Shown here: positions 9,973 to 30,881 of the stretch, piece by piece
How the letters are laid out: each line of letters opens with the position of its first letter
Numbering within the stretch: position 1 is the first letter of the stretch
Virus record (IMG/VR): IMGVR_UViG_3300017978_000092
Span: 1 to 30,881 of that record
Reading direction: 5' to 3' (one strand)
Length of the DNA stretch: 30,881 bases
From: a virus
Taxonomy: Duplodnaviria; Caudoviricetes
Made by a program: the position numbers and the translations under genes
Notes under the pieces: model-generated
Database searches by the model: none
What the model was told of the DNA's origin: nothing
The model's input: the letters and a program-made list of their open reading frames with translations, nothing else

Positions 9973-11948
9973 GCAATACAACGAATTTCTTGAACGTCCT
10001 TACCTTTGCGGAGGCCAGACAGCCAGAATACCAAGAGAAAAAAGGCGAGAATGGTGGGTACATTGAGTTTGGAAAAAAGAATGATTACCCGAATTACCTG
10101 GTAGATCTGTTTAGCAAGTCAGCTAAGCATAACGCGATCATTAAAAGTAAGGTAAATTACATCACTGGAAACGGTTTTAAGCCGATCGAAGAGACGGATC
10201 AGGTAGCTCAGGAGTTTATTGATAAGCCAAACCCTTTCGAGTCACTTAATGACATCCTAAAAAAGGTATCGACAGACGTCGAATTATTCGGTGGCGCTTA
10301 TCTTCAAGTTATCTGGAGCCAAACCGGTGGACAGATTGCTGAGGTTTATCACTTGGACTATACAAAGGTTCGCACGAATGACGATAATACTCAGTTCTGG
10401 TATTCTGAAAACTGGCAAGATTCAAAATATAAGCGCTCAATTTACAACGCGTTTAATGACAAGCTCCCAGTAGGGACACAGATCCTTTACTTAAAAGAAT
10501 ACCGTCCGAATCTTTCGGCTTATTCTTTGCCTGGTTATATCGGAGCCTTGAATTATATCGAGTCTGACATCGAAGTATCTAAGCACGTCTTAGGAAATGC
10601 TCAGACTGGATTCAGTGCTTCTAAATTAATCACGCTTCCAAACGGAGAGCCTCAAGACGAAGAGAAGAGAATCGTAGAGCGTAAATTTACAGATCGTTTC
10701 TCTGGATCCGATGGCAAGAAGTTCATTCTTTCATTTGTGAACGATGCTTCAAGAAAGCCGATTATTGAGGACTTAGGAGCTTCAGATATTACAAAGGAGG
10801 ATTTTGCGAATGTCGATAAAATCATTGAGAAAAACGTGTACGCTGGACACCAGATCACGTCTCCAGATTTATTCGGTATCTCGACACCTGGTCAATTAGG
10901 ATCACGCCAGCAAATGCGCGATTCATACGAGATCTTTAAAAATACCTACGTCAATGATAAGCAAATATATCAGGAACAAGTATTCAGTTTACTTGCCAAA
11001 TTACGCGGTGCTATCGATGGGTTACAAATAATCCCAGTCGAGCCGATCGGTATGGAGTTCTCTGAAGCTACGATCGCGCAGAACTTAACAAAAGACGAGA
11101 TCCGTGAAAAACTAGGAGCTCCTAAATTAGAGGCTAAGACTTCTGGAACTTCTCAGGATGTGATCGATGCGATCAATAGCTTATCGCCATTAGTAGCAAA
11201 CAAGGTACTTGAGTCCATGACTCCAAATGAAGTCCGGGCCCTGGTAGGCTTAACAGAAGAAAAGGGAGGAAGCGAGCTAGAATGCGTCGCTCCTTCTGCT
11301 ACTAATTTACGATTCAGCGAAGATGATATCATCTCGATCTTTGATCAGTTCGGAGAGTCAAAAGAAAATTATTCAGTATTTCGCACGAGAGACACGTTCT
11401 CTGCCTTGCCTAATGACTTGGAAGAGTCGATGAATTTAGACTTTGCTACGCAAGAATTGACACGTCTAGAGGCGAATGTATTGGACCTGATCCAGAAGGA
11501 TAAGCGAATCACTCCAGAGATAATCTCAGGCACGATCAAAACGGACCTGGCGATCATTAATAAAATCATGGACTCCTTAGAGGAGCGCGGATTAATTAAA
11601 TCCACAAATGTAAAGGGAAACGTCGAGAGAGTTTTGACTTCTCCGCTTTCTGAGATCACTGATACGAAGCCATCGACAAGAAGCTTCATGGTCCGTTATT
11701 CTTACGAGTGGAGATCATCGATCCCAGCAGGACAGAGAAACACAGCAGCGCATCCAAGCAGACAATTCTGTGCGCGCTTGATGCAATTAGATAAGCTATA
11801 CACCAGGGCAGAGATCGAAGCGATCAGCTTGCGCCTAGGTTATTCAGTATTTGATCGTCGCGGTGGCTGGTGGACTATGCCAGACGGAGAACACTCTCCT
11901 TCTTGCCGCCACGTCTGGGCTTCTCAGGTAGTAATTAAAAAAGGATAA
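9969..11948 (+). CDS. Portal protein with C-terminal wHTH and MuF-like Cys domains
   Basis: FG..NDYP.YL..L...S..HNAII..K...I.GNG, D.ELFGG.Y and H.ITSP.LFGI portal motifs; ~270-aa C-terminal extension. Confidence 0.8.
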   Translation: MSNTTNFLNVLTFAEARQPEYQEKKGENGGYIEFGKKNDYPNYLVDLFSKSAKHNAIIKSKVNYITGNGFKPIEETDQVAQEFIDKPNPFESLNDILKKVSTDVELFGGAYLQVIWSQTGGQIAEVYHLDYTKVRTNDDNTQFWYSENWQDSKYKRSIYNAFNDKLPVGTQILYLKEYRPNLSAYSLPGYIGALNYIESDIEVSKHVLGNAQTGFSASKLITLPNGEPQDEEKRIVERKFTDRFSGSDGKKFILSFVNDASRKPIIEDLGASDITKEDFANVDKIIEKNVYAGHQITSPDLFGISTPGQLGSRQQMRDSYEIFKNTYVNDKQIYQEQVFSLLAKLRGAIDGLQIIPVEPIGMEFSEATIAQNLTKDEIREKLGAPKLEAKTSGTSQDVIDAINSLSPLVANKVLESMTPNEVRALVGLTEEKGGSELECVAPSATNLRFSEDDIISIFDQFGESKENYSVFRTRDTFSALPNDLEESMNLDFATQELTRLEANVLDLIQKDKRITPEIISGTIKTDLAIINKIMDSLEERGLIKSTNVKGNVERVLTSPLSEITDTKPSTRSFMVRYSYEWRSSIPAGQRNTAAHPSRQFCARLMQLDKLYTRAEIEAISLRLGYSVFDRRGGWWTMPDGEHSPSCRHVWASQVVIKKG

Positions 11949-15993: not shown

Positions 15994-16436
15994 AAAAATT
16001 ACTTATTCTTTTGGCTTCTGTGGCATTCTTTTCTTGCAAGCAGACAAAGACTCTGACCGAGTATAAAGAAACGCTTAGAATCGATACTATAAAAAGCGAG
16101 AAGATAGTAGAAAAATTTAGAGCGGTCCACGATACGCTCACGATCTCGAATCCTTGCGACTCTTCTGGGATCCTTTCTTCTTTTTATTCCAGGTTAATTC
16201 TTCCTAATGGATCAGTGACGATCAAGTCCGACAAGGGCCAGATCAGAGCTACGATCGACATCGATTCGATGCGCCAGGAGATCGAGAATAATTACCGAAA
16301 CTCTCAAGTGAAATGGATCGAATACAGAGACAAGGAAGTGATCAAGTATCGGGTTCCTACCTGGGTGGTCATGCTACTATTCGCGGAGGCTGTCATGTTG
16401 ATCGCTTATATTTATCTTAAATTCGGCTTAAAATAG
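15990..16436 (+). CDS. Unimolecular-spanin-like lipoprotein
   Basis: Lipoprotein signal MKKLLILLASVAFFS-C plus C-terminal TM (WVVMLLFAEAVMLIAYIYL); follows endolysin. Confidence 0.7.
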   Translation: MKKLLILLASVAFFSCKQTKTLTEYKETLRIDTIKSEKIVEKFRAVHDTLTISNPCDSSGILSSFYSRLILPNGSVTIKSDKGQIRATIDIDSMRQEIENNYRNSQVKWIEYRDKEVIKYRVPTWVVMLLFAEAVMLIAYIYLKFGLK

Positions 16437-16630
16437 TGTATCAAATAGACATCGAAGGAATCGAAAATCCCCAAAATAAAACTAGCCAGCTATTGCAGAC
16501 TATGCTCGACGTAATGGAATCCATTGAGCAGATCGACGATGCTGGCTTTGTGCTTCGCATGAAGCTATTAAATAACATTGAGTTCCTGGTGGACCAATTA
16601 ATGGAAGAATATGAACAAGGAAAACGATAA
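16436..16630 (+). CDS. Hypothetical acidic protein
   Basis: 64-aa ORF with GTG start, coupled to both neighbours. Confidence 0.55.
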   Translation: MYQIDIEGIENPQNKTSQLLQTMLDVMESIEQIDDAGFVLRMKLLNNIEFLVDQLMEEYEQGKR

Positions 16631-17603
16631 GGCAGAAGCAATCAAGAAACACTTCTACTCTACCAATATGACACGCGCAGATTTTGAGCGTGAAAACTGG
16701 GAGAATTACGGATACAAAGACATGTCTACCTTTCATCGCCAGATGACTAGATACGGGATATCTGTCCAAGATCGATCTGATTACTTTAAAAAGACTAGAC
16801 CAATCGCGAAGATCGAATCATTCAACCTGGATGAGATTGATAGCTTTGGAATCGAGCCAGGGATCGGGAAAGAATACACCAGTGCGCGCCTTCCTGAGCA
16901 CTTAAAAAAGATCGGGATCCTATCTGACATTCACGTTCCTTTTCACTCCTTAGAAGCGCTTACCTGCGCGATAAAATATCTGAAAGAGCAAGAGATCGAC
17001 TGCCTTTATTTGAACGGCGATACGTTCGACTTCTATTCTATATCCAGGCACGAGAAGGAAAAAGATCTCAGAGACTTTCCGCGCGAGATCGAGATGGCTA
17101 GAAACTTTCTTCAGAAGCTTCGCGACATATTCCCTTTGATTCCGATCTACTTCAAGGCAGGAAATCACGAGAATCGCTTCCAGCGCTATCTGTTTAGCCA
17201 GGCTGAAGAGTTCGCTGGCCTCCACGAATTGCAGTTCGATAAGTTCTTCCGTATGGATCACTTGAAAATCGAATGGGTGGAAGACTGGCAAGGTATGGAA
17301 ATGGGCGATCTATTAGTCTGTCACGGTCACGAGCTCATGGCTGGAGGGATGAATCCTTCGCAAACGACGTTCAATAAAACTTTCTGCAATACTTTGATAG
17401 GTCACGTCCACAGAACGACGAGCACGATCAAGAAAAACGGCTTTAAAAAGTTCATTCATTCTTATTCGACTGGGTGCCTGACTCACTTATCGCCGAAATA
17501 CTATCCTTTTGCGCAGCACAATCACGGATTTGCACTGGTAGAAATAGAAGAAGGCAAGGCAAAAGTTCAGAATCTTATGATAAAAGACGGAAAAATTGTG
17601 TAG
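16611..17603 (+). CDS. Calcineurin-like metallophosphoesterase
   Basis: SDIH, GD.FD, GNHE, HGH and GHVH metal-binding motifs. Confidence 0.9.
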   Translation: MNKENDKAEAIKKHFYSTNMTRADFERENWENYGYKDMSTFHRQMTRYGISVQDRSDYFKKTRPIAKIESFNLDEIDSFGIEPGIGKEYTSARLPEHLKKIGILSDIHVPFHSLEALTCAIKYLKEQEIDCLYLNGDTFDFYSISRHEKEKDLRDFPREIEMARNFLQKLRDIFPLIPIYFKAGNHENRFQRYLFSQAEEFAGLHELQFDKFFRMDHLKIEWVEDWQGMEMGDLLVCHGHELMAGGMNPSQTTFNKTFCNTLIGHVHRTTSTIKKNGFKKFIHSYSTGCLTHLSPKYYPFAQHNHGFALVEIEEGKAKVQNLMIKDGKIV

Positions 17604-17608
17604 CTTTG
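17601..17608 (+). promoter_or_regulatory. Bacteroidota -7 promoter element TAGCTTTG
   Basis: Matches TAnnTTTG; would drive an ~75-nt ORF-less RNA ending at the terminator. Confidence 0.45.
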
Positions 17609-17611
17609 TAG

Positions 17612-17690
17612 AAATTAATTGTTTTTCATAGTGTTTTTATAGGTTTAGATGACATTAGAAAGCCCTGGGATCTTATCTCCGGGCTTTTTT
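17612..17690 (+). ncRNA. Candidate antisense sRNA against early-gene leaders
   Basis: Bounded by a promoter motif and a terminator; 17634-17651 is complementary to 17789-17806 and 18096-18113. Confidence 0.55.
17659..17690 (+). terminator. Rho-independent terminator ending the late/lysis block
   Basis: AAAGCCC-TGGGA..TCTCC-GGGCTTT plus T tract. Confidence 0.85.
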
Positions 17691-17749
17691 GTGCTTGAAA
17701 ATAATTTAAAAATAAATTTAAAATAATTTTTTAGTATCAAAAAAGGTAG

Positions 17750-17757
17750 TATCTTTG
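17750..17757 (+). promoter_or_regulatory. Bacteroidota -7 promoter TATCTTTG (probable main early promoter)
   Basis: Exact TAnnTTTG with a very AT-rich upstream tract at 17697-17732. Confidence 0.7.
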
Positions 17758-17799
17758 TCATGTAGTCAGCAACGAAGCAACTACAAAACATCTAAACTC

Positions 17800-18057
17800 A
17801 TGAAAATCAATCAAATTGCAGGATTAAATCGCCAAGCTAGAAAATTTTTATTAGCAAATTTAATTAGTGTAAAATCAGCCGAAGTTATGGGCTTGTATTT
17901 TAAGGGAAATATTAATGGGCGCTATGCTGAAGGAATTTCAATTATTAGAGAAAATGGCAAATGGATTATATTTTCAACAAAAGAACCTATTCAATCAATA
18001 TACGGTAATATAGAGTGCTTTATTACTACAAATAATACTTTTAATTCTTCAATATAA
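17800..18057 (+). CDS. Hypothetical early protein (AT-rich)
   Basis: Start revised to ATG 17800 because the TTG call lies inside the promoter; 85 aa. Confidence 0.6.
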   Translation: MKINQIAGLNRQARKFLLANLISVKSAEVMGLYFKGNINGRYAEGISIIRENGKWIIFSTKEPIQSIYGNIECFITTNNTFNSSI

Positions 18058-18106
18058 TCATCCGAACCAGAGCGGATTCTCTGGCAATCTTTAATCATCT
18101 AATTTT

Positions 18107-18217
18107 ATGAGAGAATTATTAAAAACAATCCCAGGATCTGAACTAGCCCAGGCTACTGTCCTAACGCTGATCGTGATCGGCATCTTATCAATCATCACAA
18201 TTATTTCAAACCTTTAA
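18107..18217 (+). CDS. Small single-TM membrane peptide (36 aa)
   Basis: MRELLKTIPGSELAQATVLTLIVIGILSIITIISNL; leader shares the CATCTAA motif. Confidence 0.6.
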   Translation: MRELLKTIPGSELAQATVLTLIVIGILSIITIISNL

Positions 18218-18872: not shown

Positions 18873-19220
18873 ATGTTCAAGCAAGGGACAAGCTTCATGT
18901 TTAGAAATTCGATCGATTGGTCAGTGAGTTATTTGAAAGACTTCGAGACTAAGTCTGACTTCGATCAGTGGATGGATGAACGACTAAGGGATGGGCTGGT
19001 TTATATCGGGGAAAAATCCAAAGAGATACCAGCCTATCCTCAAGTTTTAAAGCTAGATTTTAAGTACACGTCTGGCGGTTATTCAACTGCAATAGAGCGC
19101 TTCAATTCTAGTGAAGAATATACCAGGTATTGCGACTGGAAATTATCGCAAGGATATAAAGTTATAGGCTCAGAGCCTTACATGGAATTAAAAACAGACC
19201 AAGAAGATGGCACGAATTAA
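18873..19220 (+). CDS. Hypothetical protein with an internal two-fold repeat
   Basis: FETKSDFDQWMDERLRDGLVYIGE resembles FNSSEEYTRYCDWKLSQGYKVIGSE; ATG 18873 preferred as start. Confidence 0.6.
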   Translation: MFKQGTSFMFRNSIDWSVSYLKDFETKSDFDQWMDERLRDGLVYIGEKSKEIPAYPQVLKLDFKYTSGGYSTAIERFNSSEEYTRYCDWKLSQGYKVIGSEPYMELKTDQEDGTN

Positions 19221-19401
19221 AAAAATGGATATTTACAAAGAGGTAGCAGAACGCCTAAATGCTAAGGGGAAGCTTCCATTTAGCGCCAGGGAGTGGAACA
19301 CTGGCTTAGTCCAGCAGACAGTCTACGGGAAACTAAAATACCCGGAAGTAATGGAGGAGTTAAAATTAATCATGCAAGAATATGAAAGAGCAGAAGCTTG
19401 A
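19207..19401 (+). CDS. Small putative DNA-binding protein
   Basis: YKEVAERLNAKG......EWN...V pattern. Confidence 0.5.
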   Translation: MARIKKMDIYKEVAERLNAKGKLPFSAREWNTGLVQQTVYGKLKYPEVMEELKLIMQEYERAEA

Positions 19402-19567
19402 TTTTAACGCCTGGATGGATCACATATCTAACCAGCTCCAGGAGGATTATCGTAAACTTTACTATTCATCTAAATTCAAACAAGATGCTAACATTCAAAG
19501 AGTATCACGCAAAGAATCAAAAGATATACGAAGAGTTCAAACGCTTCGCCTTTTTGCTGATCAATAA
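19382..19567 (+). CDS. Hypothetical protein
   Basis: 61-aa ORF overlapping both neighbours. Confidence 0.4.
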   Translation: MKEQKLDFNAWMDHISNQLQEDYRKLYYSSKFKQDANIQRVSRKESKDIRRVQTLRLFADQ

Positions 19568-19751: not shown

Positions 19752-19759
19752 TATATTTG
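19752..19759 (+). promoter_or_regulatory. Bacteroidota -7 promoter TATATTTG
   Basis: Exact TAnnTTTG, intergenic, followed by a hairpin leader. Confidence 0.6.
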
Positions 19760-19804
19760 TAAACCGGGCCGGTCATGTAGGCTGGCCCACATCTAACCAA
19801 TAAA

Positions 19805-19996
19805 ATGACAAGAAAGCAATTCGCAGCAAGTTTAGTAAAGCGTTTCCAGGAAGCGCACCCACAGATCAAGAAAAATAAAGAGGAGGCAATCGCTTCCGCA
19901 ATCCTAGGCGCTGAGATAGTCATGGAAGCGATTCACGCTGGAGACTTAGATCTTAGCCACTGGGCAGAATTAAGAGAGGATCTAATAAATCTGTAA
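19805..19996 (+). CDS. Small helical protein, MTPKEKA-like family paralog 1
   Basis: MTRKQFA..LV..F / A..SAIL / W.EL.E.L..L pattern. Confidence 0.6.
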   Translation: MTRKQFAASLVKRFQEAHPQIKKNKEEAIASAILGAEIVMEAIHAGDLDLSHWAELREDLINL

Positions 19997-19999
19997 GCC

Positions 20000-20215
20000 A
20001 TGACACCGAAAGAAAAAGCAGTAGAAATAAGATTTACATTCTGGAGATATGCAGATGTAGATTCAGAACAAGCGACTAGGTGTGCATTAATTGCTATTGA
20101 TGAGATATTAAAATCAAATCCAATTATGCCTTTATCTTATATGCTTGAAAGTGAAGCATTAGATGCAGGAATTAATTATTGGAAAAAAGTAAAACAAGAA
20201 ATAAAAAAGCTATGA
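20000..20215 (+). CDS. Small helical protein, MTPKEKA family paralog 2 (AT-rich)
   Basis: MTPKEKA...A.RCALIAIDEIL...YWKKVKQEIKKL. Confidence 0.7.
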   Translation: MTPKEKAVEIRFTFWRYADVDSEQATRCALIAIDEILKSNPIMPLSYMLESEALDAGINYWKKVKQEIKKL

Positions 20216-20641: not shown

Positions 20642-20730
20642 TATTCAGCGGAAGGGGTGAGAGTCTTCCGGTGAATACGGGTTAAAAAACCACTAAGCCA
20701 GTCTGATCTCTCACTCAGCTGGCTTTTTTA
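20642..20730 (+). ncRNA. Structured leader/attenuator RNA with complementary loops
   Basis: Hairpin 20642-20677, mini-hairpin 20680-20691 and terminator hairpin 20695-20725 plus T tract; loops GTGAGAG and CTCTCAC are complementary. Confidence 0.65.
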
Positions 20731-20912: not shown

Positions 20913-21611
20913 ATGGCGGCATTTCGAAAAATATCGGTCACTTTCTGGAGCGATTCCTTCATTGGGGATCTAACACCAGAGCAGAAATACTTTTACTTGT
21001 ATTTGATGACAAATGACAAGACTACTCAGTGCGGAATATACGAGACATCAATCAGAAAGATCTGCTTCGATACTGGTTACAACTCCGAAACGGTCCTAAA
21101 ATTATTAGATTTCTTTCAGGAGAAAAACAAAATCAGATTCTCAAAAGAGACCAATGAAATCGCGCTTTTGAACTGGGTTAAGTTCAATGACTCGAATTCT
21201 CCTAAAGTTTTGTCATGTGTTGAAAAAGAACTAAAGAACGTAAAAAATACAGTATTGATACAGTATCTATACAGTATGGATACTCAATCGCAAGAAGAAG
21301 AAGAAGAAGAAAAACAAGAAGAAGAATATAAGAGTAATGATTTTGAAATCTTCTGGAATTCTTACGGAAAGAAAGTCGATCGAGTAAAATGTGAAAAGGC
21401 TTGGAAGAAATTGAAGAAGCAAGAGATCGAGAAAATCCTGGAGACTATTAATCGATACGTCGGAGCTAATCCAGATATTCAATACCGAAAGAATCCACTT
21501 ACCTATCTGAATGGGAAGTGCTTCAACGATGAGCTTCCAGGATTAGGAAGAAATCAAAATAATATTTTACCTTTGAACGACAAACCTATAATAAATCAAG
21601 AATGGCTTTAA
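20913..21611 (+). CDS. Replication initiator/replisome organiser
   Basis: FRKI...FW.D...LTPE.KYFYLYL.TN..T..CGIY N-terminus; C-terminal FE.FW..Y.KK...KAW.KL...P.TYLN; internal iterons; upstream of DnaB. Confidence 0.8.
   Translation: MAAFRKISVTFWSDSFIGDLTPEQKYFYLYLMTNDKTTQCGIYETSIRKICFDTGYNSETVLKLLDFFQEKNKIRFSKETNEIALLNWVKFNDSNSPKVLSCVEKELKNVKNTVLIQYLYSMDTQSQEEEEEEKQEEEYKSNDFEIFWNSYGKKVDRVKCEKAWKKLKKQEIEKILETINRYVGANPDIQYRKNPLTYLNGKCFNDELPGLGRNQNNILPLNDKPIINQEWL
21247..21330. repeat. Probable replication origin: three ATACAGTAT iterons (11-bp period) plus a GAA-rich tract
   Basis: ATACAGTAT at 21247, 21258 and 21269, half-site at 21280, then a purine run at ~21292-21327, all inside the initiator gene. 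Confidence 0.65.
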
Positions 21612-24028: not shown

Positions 24029-24372
24029 TCGTAATAAAAGGCCAGGTGCCTAGTAAGTCAAACGGATACCGGATCGGAGGAAATCGCCTCTATAAGACCG
24101 TTGATCTAAAGGAGTACGAAGTGAGCTTCGAGTGGCAGATCAGAAAGCACAGAGGCGAAACGATCAGCGTTCCCTTCCAGATCTGGATCGATGTCTACTT
24201 CCAATCTAATAGATCTGACCTAGACAACGCGGCGAAGGTAATCCTTGACTGCCTCCAGAATTGTGGCATGATTCAGAACGATCGACTCTGTTCGGTCCTG
24301 GTCATGAGGAAGCACATCGATAAAATGGATCCTAGAATTGAGTTTGAGATAAAAAAAATAAATGAAAAATAA
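24025..24372 (+). CDS. rusA: RusA-family Holliday junction resolvase
   Basis: PSKSN and R.DLDN..K.ILD.L......ND motifs. Confidence 0.85.
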   Translation: MIVIKGQVPSKSNGYRIGGNRLYKTVDLKEYEVSFEWQIRKHRGETISVPFQIWIDVYFQSNRSDLDNAAKVILDCLQNCGMIQNDRLCSVLVMRKHIDKMDPRIEFEIKKINEK

Positions 24373-25434: not shown

Positions 25435-25698
25435 ATGAATAGTAACGCTGAGCAAGTGGTCAAACCTGATCACTATCAAGGAAAGGGAGGACTCCAGGCG
25501 ATTGACGTGATCGATGCTTTTGGGCTTGGGTTCTCCCTAGGTAACGTCATCAAGTACGTTCTTAGAGCAGGCAAGAAACAAGATCGTCTTCAGGACCTTG
25601 AGAAAGCGATGGAATACTTAAAGTTTGAAATCGAAAACACGAAGAAGATCGTTAAGGAAGTCGAAGCTTACATCGCTAGTTTACCAGAGGACTTATAG
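25435..25698 (+). CDS. DUF3310-family protein (T7 gp1.7-like nucleotide-kinase domain)
   Basis: P.HY......AIDVI....F.LGNVIKY..RAGKK....DL.KA..YL. Confidence 0.85.
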   Translation: MNSNAEQVVKPDHYQGKGGLQAIDVIDAFGLGFSLGNVIKYVLRAGKKQDRLQDLEKAMEYLKFEIENTKKIVKEVEAYIASLPEDL

Positions 25699-26201
25699 TG
25701 AAGAGCAGAAATGAGATAATCGAGGAGCTGTACCTTTCGAAGGATATAAGCCAGGCGCTTCGCAAGATGCAACCGGCTAGCCTCCGCGACGATCTTAGGC
25801 AAGAGATGTTCATCTCACTTTGCACTCTAAGCGACGAGAAATTCTGGAATCTTTATGAGAACAACGCGCTGAAGTTCTATCTGGTCCGGGCCATGCTAAA
25901 CATGATTCGAAGCACTGGGATGAATCAGCCTTTCTTCCGTAACTTCCGGGCAAAGTTCGAATCGATAGAGGAGATCGAAAACCTGGAAGATCAGATCGAT
26001 AACTCGAAGGACCAGAAGGAAATTCTTTTCGATTTGCTAGATAGTAAGAGAAAGACGCTGTGCTGGTATGAAGACCGACTGCTGGATCAATACGTCGAAT
26101 CTGGTTTTAATCAGATGGACGTCCACAGAAAGACCAAGATACCCTATCCGTCGATCGTCAAAACTATCGCGTTAATCAAAAAGAAACTCAAGGATGAATA
26201 A
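25698..26201 (+). CDS. Sigma-70/ECF-like RNA polymerase sigma factor
   Basis: Region-2-like DDLRQEMFISL...FYLVRAMLN and region-4-like L.WYE..L...Y....HTH..IKKKLK. Confidence 0.7.
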   Translation: MKSRNEIIEELYLSKDISQALRKMQPASLRDDLRQEMFISLCTLSDEKFWNLYENNALKFYLVRAMLNMIRSTGMNQPFFRNFRAKFESIEEIENLEDQIDNSKDQKEILFDLLDSKRKTLCWYEDRLLDQYVESGFNQMDVHRKTKIPYPSIVKTIALIKKKLKDE

Positions 26202-30850: not shown

Positions 30851-30881
30851 ACGCTATTTATAATCGATATGACTTGGAAAG
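30827..30881. repeat. 55-bp terminal direct repeat, right copy
   Basis: Identical to 1-55. Confidence 0.95.

Follow-up and report, generated by a model that had tools for sequence, protein, structure and literature searches.

The window, by which we mean the whole stretch of DNA analyzed, is an entire virus record of 30,881 nt with direct terminal repeats. Its genes run along the + strand, the structural and lysis genes coming first and ending at a metallophosphoesterase gene (Table 1), which gene, as the final one of the late/lysis block, served us as the anchor for finding related loci; 3' of it follow the small early genes, the replication initiator, DnaB, RusA, and the terminase. Among the 51 ORFs of the + strand and the 5 of the minus strand, many of them small and without a family, we recognized no integrase, repressor, or antirepressor, nor was a partition gene found among the ORFs scanned in the window. 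By its sequence the phage would belong to a freshwater family infecting Bacteroidota-type bacteria, in which family DNA comparison revealed no cultured relatives. Related loci were present in three bins named Sediminibacterium sp., Bacteroidetes, and Bacteroidia; these bins are short contigs and thus provide a host hint only, integration not being demonstrated by them.

Several other features of the genome deserve mention. The gene at 25698-26201 has a weak full-length match to the ECF sigma factors and is 57-64% conserved in other clades, and its product is likely a late-gene sigma factor. The sequence TATTTATAA, a candidate late promoter, occurs at 29 and 7304, ahead of the structural genes at 43 and 7336, and at 30855, near the end of the record. 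A 64-aa gene without family (19207-19401) has matches in 90 loci of all classes and is a candidate small DNA-binding regulator; a repressor search with that conserved gene gave only matches to unnamed clusters below 0.9 and a weak one to FlhC. In addition, a terminator-like hairpin (20697-20730) stands ahead of 20741, and its 3' part, CTGGCTTTTTT, recurs before the replication genes in several clades.

The unit of interest lies between the metallophosphoesterase gene and the first early promoter. The first-pass annotation, made from the letters alone, had placed a promoter at 17601-17608 and a terminator at 17659-17690, and all those coordinates were confirmed. The TAG within TAGCTTTG doubles as the metallophosphoesterase stop codon. 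The 5' part of the predicted RNA, when folded alone, reaches only -5.0 kcal/mol, and the terminator is the sole consensus helix across 14 aligned units, with two-sided changes at 10 of its 14 consensus pairs.

Table 1. Positions in the window of the unit, its predicted and possible targets, and neighboring features.
Feature	Position	Strand	Basis or remark
Metallophosphoesterase gene	16611..17603	+	phrog_221, E 1e-42; Pfam Metallophos
TAnnTTTG, -7 box of the Bacteroidota primary sigma factor	17601..17608	+	sequence TAGCTTTG; overlaps stop codon
Predicted RNA, ~79 nt	17612..17690	+	start placed from the -7 box; 5' part with little structure, then terminator
Constant anti-start-codon segment TGTTTTTCATAGT	17620..17632	+	TCAT in 143/148 units
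Clade-specific seed	17634..17652	+	core TTAGATG (17645-17651) mirrors early-leader tag CATCTAA
Intrinsic terminator	17659..17690	+	stem 17664-17683; common to the unit and any late read-through
First early promoter TATCTTTG	17750..17757	+	sequence
Short hairpin with GCAACGAAGC core, 5' end of first early leader	17761..17785	+	motif in 25/26 C1 loci
Predicted target 1: start of 85-aa gene, variable first slot	17789..17806	+	-17.7 kcal/mol, z -2.3
Predicted target 2: start of 36-aa hydrophobic peptide gene (18107-18217)	18096..18113	+	-18.0 kcal/mol, z -3.1
Predicted target 3: phrog_13625 gene, ATG 19485	19467..19487	+	-16.9 kcal/mol, z -2.5
Predicted target 4: 63-aa gene, ATG 19805	19790..19807	+	-18.4 kcal/mol, z -3.0; promoter TATATTTG at 19752
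Possible target 5: ATCTAA, ATG 20000	19980..20002	+	-17.9 kcal/mol, z -2.4; absent from the first-pass annotation
Possible target 6: AAACCTATAA in DnaB helicase leader, ATG 21602	21582..21591	+	10-nt complement
Possible phage sigma factor	25698..26201	+	TIGR02937, E 7e-4, 19 bits vs cut-off 42.9

Anchored scans of viral contigs and genomes gave 282 sequences, of which 265 contained the end of the anchor gene and 159, the window included, remained after the removal of duplicates. Four of these nonredundant loci ended too soon to be judged. Within the 155 evaluable loci the unit was present in 154—6 recognized by eye and 148 by a script that, in demanding a promoter with at most one mismatch, makes this latter count partly circular—and was lacking in one. 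TAnnTTTG was exact in 117 of the 148 scripted units and carried one mismatch in 31. Independent evidence for the retention of the promoter comes from eight loci in which a gene has been inserted behind the anchor: in all eight a further TAnnTTTG immediately precedes the unit, lying in two of them inside the coding sequence, and the three inserted genes tested were all HNH nucleases. A second layout, in which the early block lies on the opposite strand, likewise retains the unit (L126, L183, L230, L233, L235, L245); the anchor genes of those loci are scattered on the tree, which distribution indicates that recombination acts on the anchor gene separately from the unit.

The HNH cassettes were seen to insert exactly at the unit promoter (L001 5991-6100, L004 2307-2408, L058 5988-6096, L026, L049, L182). 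The leaders that lie between TAnnTTTG and the HNH start in these cassettes are structured and of at least three types, with two long stems and possibly a pseudoknot; no Rfam match was obtained for them in the loci scanned.

In most loci the promoter match shares bases with the stop codon of the last late gene. This overlap, together with the weak -33 box of the unit, raises the question of whether a separate RNA exists at all, or whether the seed is the 3' tail of the late-operon mRNA and would exert a late-to-early feedback; FopS-14, for its part, is derived from a 3'UTR, according to the available portion of PMC11697453. We consider such a tail highly unlikely, since in 19 of the 148 units TAnnTTTG does not touch the stop codon, and it occurs within HNH coding sequence in other frames.

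The pairing of the seed (17634-17651) with 17789-17806 comprises 15 Watson-Crick pairs, 2 G-U pairs, and 1 mismatch, and that with 18096-18113 comprises 12, 5, and 1, respectively; both of the 18-nt pairings originally claimed, with one mismatch and G-U allowed, were thus upheld by position and base count, and the CATCTAA sites at 19467 and 19790, ahead of the ATGs at 19485 and 19805, were found where they had been reported. CATCTAA occurs in 4 of 14 early leaders, as against 0.022 expected under an order-2 Markov model, and in none of the 20 late or the 13 middle leaders. When the 47 start regions were ranked by duplex energy, these four targets took places 1, 2, 4, and 6, and together with the gene at 20000 constituted five of the six best, the difference between early and late start regions having a p of 0.002. 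In comparison with shuffled RNA, moreover, the sites at 17789, 18096, 19467, and 19790 gave z-scores of -2.3 to -3.1. For target 3 the mean longest complement was 8.7 nt across 14 orthologues of the seed class C1. The DnaB leader contains the longest perfect complement (10 nt) among 46 starts, with a mean of 10.2 nt in 12 distinct C1 leaders, this complement being retained among close relatives, and has an ordinary duplex energy (-12.4, z -0.3). The replication initiator leaders were not targets. The sigma-like gene at 25698 was rejected as a target, its leader pairing reaching z -2 in just 2 of 18 orthologous leaders.

A further claim, that the segment TTTTTCAT is antisense to five gene starts of the form ATGAAAAA, fared less well. 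All five starts exist, two of them belonging to late genes, and the one at 24362 exceeds shuffled RNA (z -2.2); the other four (11952, 15990, 20741, and 25050) show no such advantage, their z-scores being -0.9 to +0.3. A role of the segment as a guide to these five phage genes is therefore mostly not supported; it is instead the part that the unit shares with the host FopS RNAs considered below.

Across the relatives, the seed and the early-leader tag change together from clade to clade. The seed classes largely coincide with clades on the anchor-protein tree, constructed with 62 of the 136 proteins, with C7 scattered. The 7-nt tags in the early-gene leaders are CATCTAA in C1, ATTCTAA in C4, CTTAAAC in C3, and CAACAAC in C2. 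Each was found in the distinct early leaders of its own class (30/154, 21/89, 36/281, and 25/134, in that order), in none of the late leaders of that class (0/143, 0/87, 0/232, and 0/100), and no more than 4 times in each of the other three, which counts are to be read with the tags having been selected after the seeds were seen and with the loci in one clade not being independent (about six switches on the tree). A motif-free duplex matrix with 25 of the 48 distinct RNAs gave the cognate RNA class as the best for 20 of 24 loci. The distance from tag to AUG also tracks that in the mirror (C4, 11/11; C3, 9-10/10; C2, 3-4/1-3), and is split in C1, being 4 and 11 versus 9-15 in the mirror.

Two cases are especially informative. 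In a C2 sub-lineage (L118 and L120) the RNA has lost TGATTCAT and its anti-AUG and carries a new 11-nt seed, GTATAGTTGTT. Of the 20 start regions of those loci, 4 contain AACAACTATAC, as against none of 156, and none contains ATGAATCA, which is present in 14 of the 156. An internal orthologue has there lost ATGAATCA and gained the complement of the new seed, which exchange constitutes a compensatory swap. In the complete genome G001, where the early block is on the opposite strand from the unit, the two best of 51 start regions belong to early genes 7.3 and ~10.6 kb distant (-30.1 and -25.2 kcal/mol); since these targets are remote and on the other strand, pairing within one transcript is ruled out in that genome. 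The unit is accordingly a conserved promoter/U-rich/terminator element that co-varies with the early-leader tags. The co-variation, the lack of a minus-strand gene, and the distant opposite-strand targets in G001 are all consistent with the trans-acting, multi-target antisense RNA that the first-pass annotation had proposed; conserved complementarity to several targets elsewhere along with compensatory change, which is one mark of trans-acting base-pairing sRNAs as a class, was found here.

Other results cut against pairing. When the duplexes were examined for an excess of G-U over A-C differences, the wobble type accounted for 55 of 144 and 35 of 188 (p 0.22 and 0.07), and within a class an RNA was no better on its own locus than those of its class-mates (five classes, p 0.09-0.66). 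The duplexes that C1 RNAs form with C4 targets are as good as those with their own (-19.4 vs -18.8); C1, C3, and C4 RNAs cross-pair substantially, with C2 nearly orthogonal. For the C5 and C6 tags no class specificity was observed, and the loci L261 and L217 are discordant. In G001 the overall comparison of early with late start regions was not significant (p = 0.18), 3 of the 10 top start regions being those of late genes. Only in C4 and C2 does the orthologue of a distal 250-aa gene track the seed; in C3, C5, and C6 it does not, and the C4 tag was seen at one C3 locus. Finally, 26 of the 27 C1 units retain the anti-AUG segment, with ATGAAAA starts unenriched in the C1 early genes (7/167 vs 10/162).

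That the G-U test did not favor RNA would agree with an origin of the mirror at the DNA level, template switching or recombination copying the adjacent early leader in inverted form and the tag being a recombination site for shuffling the small early genes, with RNA pairing not under selection. The mirror is indeed collinear with a leader ~140 nt away, and behind a single leader the first early slot is occupied, across 26 loci, by genes of 7 protein families. Such a process, however, would leave unexplained the kept promoter and co-varying terminator, the distant opposite-strand targets of G001, and the swap at an internal gene, and no inverted early promoter was noticed in the flanks inspected; we thus regard it as decidedly unlikely.

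The minus strand of the unit reads as a leader and then an ATG, and any A-rich leader will pair with a U-rich RNA, which circumstances could speak for the unit as the relic leader of a lost minus-strand gene, for the tag as an orientation-independent protein-binding site, or for chance composition. The first of these, the decayed leader that the first-pass annotation had itself set against its proposal, finds no conserved minus-strand ORF and no internal promoter: the ORFs on that strand span 2-45 codons with no conserved peptide behind the mirrored ATG, and TAnnTTTG on that strand is inside none of the 148 units and within 64 nt beyond in 4. The tags, moreover, are located at the start codons of internal genes and not at promoters, and chance composition was excluded by the shuffles and the cross-class controls. 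Taken as a group, we hold these explanations to be scarcely probable.

The closest known family is that of the FopS sRNAs of Bacteroides thetaiotaomicron (Rfam RF04319; PMC11697453, from whose available portion all statements here on that family are taken). FopS RNAs (~70 nt) and, by its sequence, the unit have in common a primary-sigma promoter, a single-stranded 5' part, and an intrinsic terminator; FopS represses by pairing beside start codons, and the same geometry is predicted for the phage RNA. The segment TGTTTTTCATAGT is identical over 13 nt to the 5' end of FopS-10 (supplementary oligo table, PMC11697453), that stretch beginning 8 nt inside the predicted RNA and being absent from C2 (0/26) and C7 (0/6). 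The sole hit of the RF04319 model in the genome is at 17619-17693, where the full model aligns, with 17.6 bits against a cut-off of 56; in five related records none exceeded the cut-off (best, 22.1 bits), the unit being the best hit in 2 of the 5, and nothing passed it in the three genome bins holding relatives. FopS is multicopy, whereas the unit is single-copy in the window genome; and FopS possesses a nearly invariant seed directed at host SusC-like mRNAs (PMC11697453), whereas the second seed of the unit varies by clade and has its own early genes as predicted targets. GibS, also from B. thetaiotaomicron (PMC7366714, available part), resembles the unit in being unstructured and in extending a two-part seed over the start codons of mRNAs lacking a Shine-Dalgarno sequence, and works in a host without Hfq or ProQ; it differs in its length of 145 nt, its non-canonical promoter, and its chromosomal metabolic targets, and no Rfam match to GibS was found here. 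The unit would therefore resemble FopS and GibS in its manner of working, but fails formal FopS membership.

That likeness invites the alternative of a FopS mimic aimed mainly at host mRNAs beginning with AUGAAAA, those of SusC-like transporters that may serve as phage receptors, or at RbpB, an RNA-binding protein of the host. The 13-nt identity with FopS-10, the enrichment of FopS targets in SusC-like mRNAs (PMC11697453, same portion), and the conservation of the anti-AUG segment without own-gene enrichment in C1 all agree with such a mimic, and the shared segment, kept in C1 without enrichment of matching early starts, would allow for host targets or the binding of a chaperone. An unanchored pattern scan of 3 of the 64 parts of the collection, which scan gave 119 loci, adds that the sense form TAAACCTA...ATGAAAA stands ahead of an ORF of at least 50 codons in 45 of them, indicating that the mirror is partly generic. 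With a purely host-directed RNA, however, the phage leaders should be driven away from the seed, and they instead match it and change along with it. This alternative as the main function is thus very unlikely in our judgment, host-directed action being more likely a second role.

The reading that we favor, with somewhat better than even confidence, is that of a FopS-like phage sRNA that turns down the translation of its own early genes as a timer. The ~79-nt RNA would pair in trans over the early start regions and block ribosome loading. According to the accessible portion of PMC13000457, initiation in the Bacteroidia depends on adenines at -3, -6, -12, and -13 plus low structure, and the predicted duplexes cover the AUG and those same positions; GibS and FopS repress by the same pairing geometry in Bacteroides without Hfq (PMC7366714, PMC11697453, in the parts available). 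The unit and the early genes have promoters of one type, and transcription from the start is hence to be expected: the host RNA polymerase would presumably transcribe the unit from the onset of infection alongside the early promoters, and the terminator-protected RNA would accumulate, with late read-through ending at the same terminator probably adding more. The rising RNA would gradually dim the tagged early genes while the untagged late genes remained on, the outcome being a built-in timer without a repressor protein. Since the tag is located in the leader, any gene entering the variable early slots would fall under the same control, and the sigma-like gene, a possible driver of late transcription, not being a conserved target is consistent with the timer.

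The same RNA and the same pairing might instead have immunity as their main task, silencing a superinfecting relative or holding a carrier state, the seeds then corresponding to immunity groups, as with c4 for P1 and P7. The clade-specific seeds with a nearly orthogonal C2, the 10-nt complement in the C1 DnaB leader, and the lack of a recognized repressor in the ORFs scanned are in keeping with that role, and c4 does underlie the heteroimmunity of P1 and P7 through differences in its sequence (PMC12197685, available text). We nonetheless deem that role unlikely, in view of the substantial cross-pairing of the C1, C3, and C4 RNAs, the lack of an integrase or partition gene among the scanned ORFs, and the replication initiator leaders not being targeted. 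If the timer, the immunity variant, and the 3' tail of the late mRNA are taken together, it is quite probable that an RNA pairs with the early gene starts in one form or another. We would propose with considerably more reserve a repressor-free master switch derived from a FopS-like design, in which one RNA reads clade-specific address tags on interchangeable early genes, RNA and tags co-evolving like repressor and operator, and sets the early shut-off, perhaps also immunity, across a large phage group; this is a tentative idea that may well prove wrong.

The RNAs c4 of P1/P7 and CI of P4, like the one predicted here, are phage RNAs acting in trans on the phage's own transcripts, but are processed and structured, with their targets in their own operon—ant translation for the former and premature termination for CI—as far as the available parts of PMC8546580, PMC12197685, and PMC4825925 describe them. 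The unit, in contrast, would be unprocessed, its tag is common to several separate genes, and only the terminator fold is conserved. C4 and CI RNAs had no Rfam match in the window or in 10 loci, nor did any Rfam family at E<=1 in the entire window or those 10 loci; on a stretch of 401 nt ten sub-threshold hits appeared. Lambda PreS and VP882 VpdS (bioRxiv 10.1101/2024.10.31.621285) are multi-target base-pairing phage sRNAs of the lytic cycle; both are proteobacterial, and PreS was found via Hfq and acts mainly on host genes, and the accessible portion of that preprint does not describe a co-evolving self-tag.

In the literature searched, outside which most subscription papers lie, we found no account of a phage sRNA whose own early genes bear a tag co-evolving with it. 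The available text of a 2025 review of phage sRNAs (PMC12197685) does not contain the terms "Bacteroid", "early gene", or "start codon", and one FopS copy in a Caudovirales phage is reported in PMC11697453, which copy may bear on novelty.

The question addressed is how small phages without a visible repressor turn off their early genes. In T4, RegA and RegB carry out a post-transcriptional shut-off of many early phage genes via a common start-region feature, these being a protein repressor and an endonuclease, not an RNA. The present unit would offer a one-RNA self-regulon with natural seed/leader pairs, which pairs can be tested directly by reporters. If the reading is true, the FopS family would be tied to phage gene control, and ready, partly orthogonal RNA-leader pairs would be at hand for hosts without Shine-Dalgarno pairing and Hfq.

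With respect to the tagged leaders themselves, a short hairpin like that at the 5' end of the first one is found ahead of others as well (18060-18077 and 19764-19787), the GCAACGAAGC form being present in 25 of 26 C1, 15 of 53 C3, and 6 of 7 C6 loci. This hairpin could be a 5' stabilizer, a processing site, or an antitermination signal.

The Nonlabens phage P12024S (L284), whose capsid match is weak (25%), has a single promoter/U-rich/terminator unit after the holin gene (10174-10245), to which the leader at 16313 offers a 12-nt complement. We discarded that phage as a model, there being no anti-AUG segment and no clear early preference among 60 starts (one start one base off). Several of its structural genes have CGTTAATA in common ahead of the start. 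In the unanchored scan a terminator followed the match in 11 of the 119 loci and both promoter and terminator were present in 6, three of which (L286, L331, L361) had no anchor gene and lie outside the phage family. Units with an anti-AUG segment and a terminator were also noted in genome bins and other contigs (L404 154-221, L406, L292, L297), some of them behind a TAnnTTTG-like box and all below the FopS cut-off, and this design may be widespread in the Bacteroidota.
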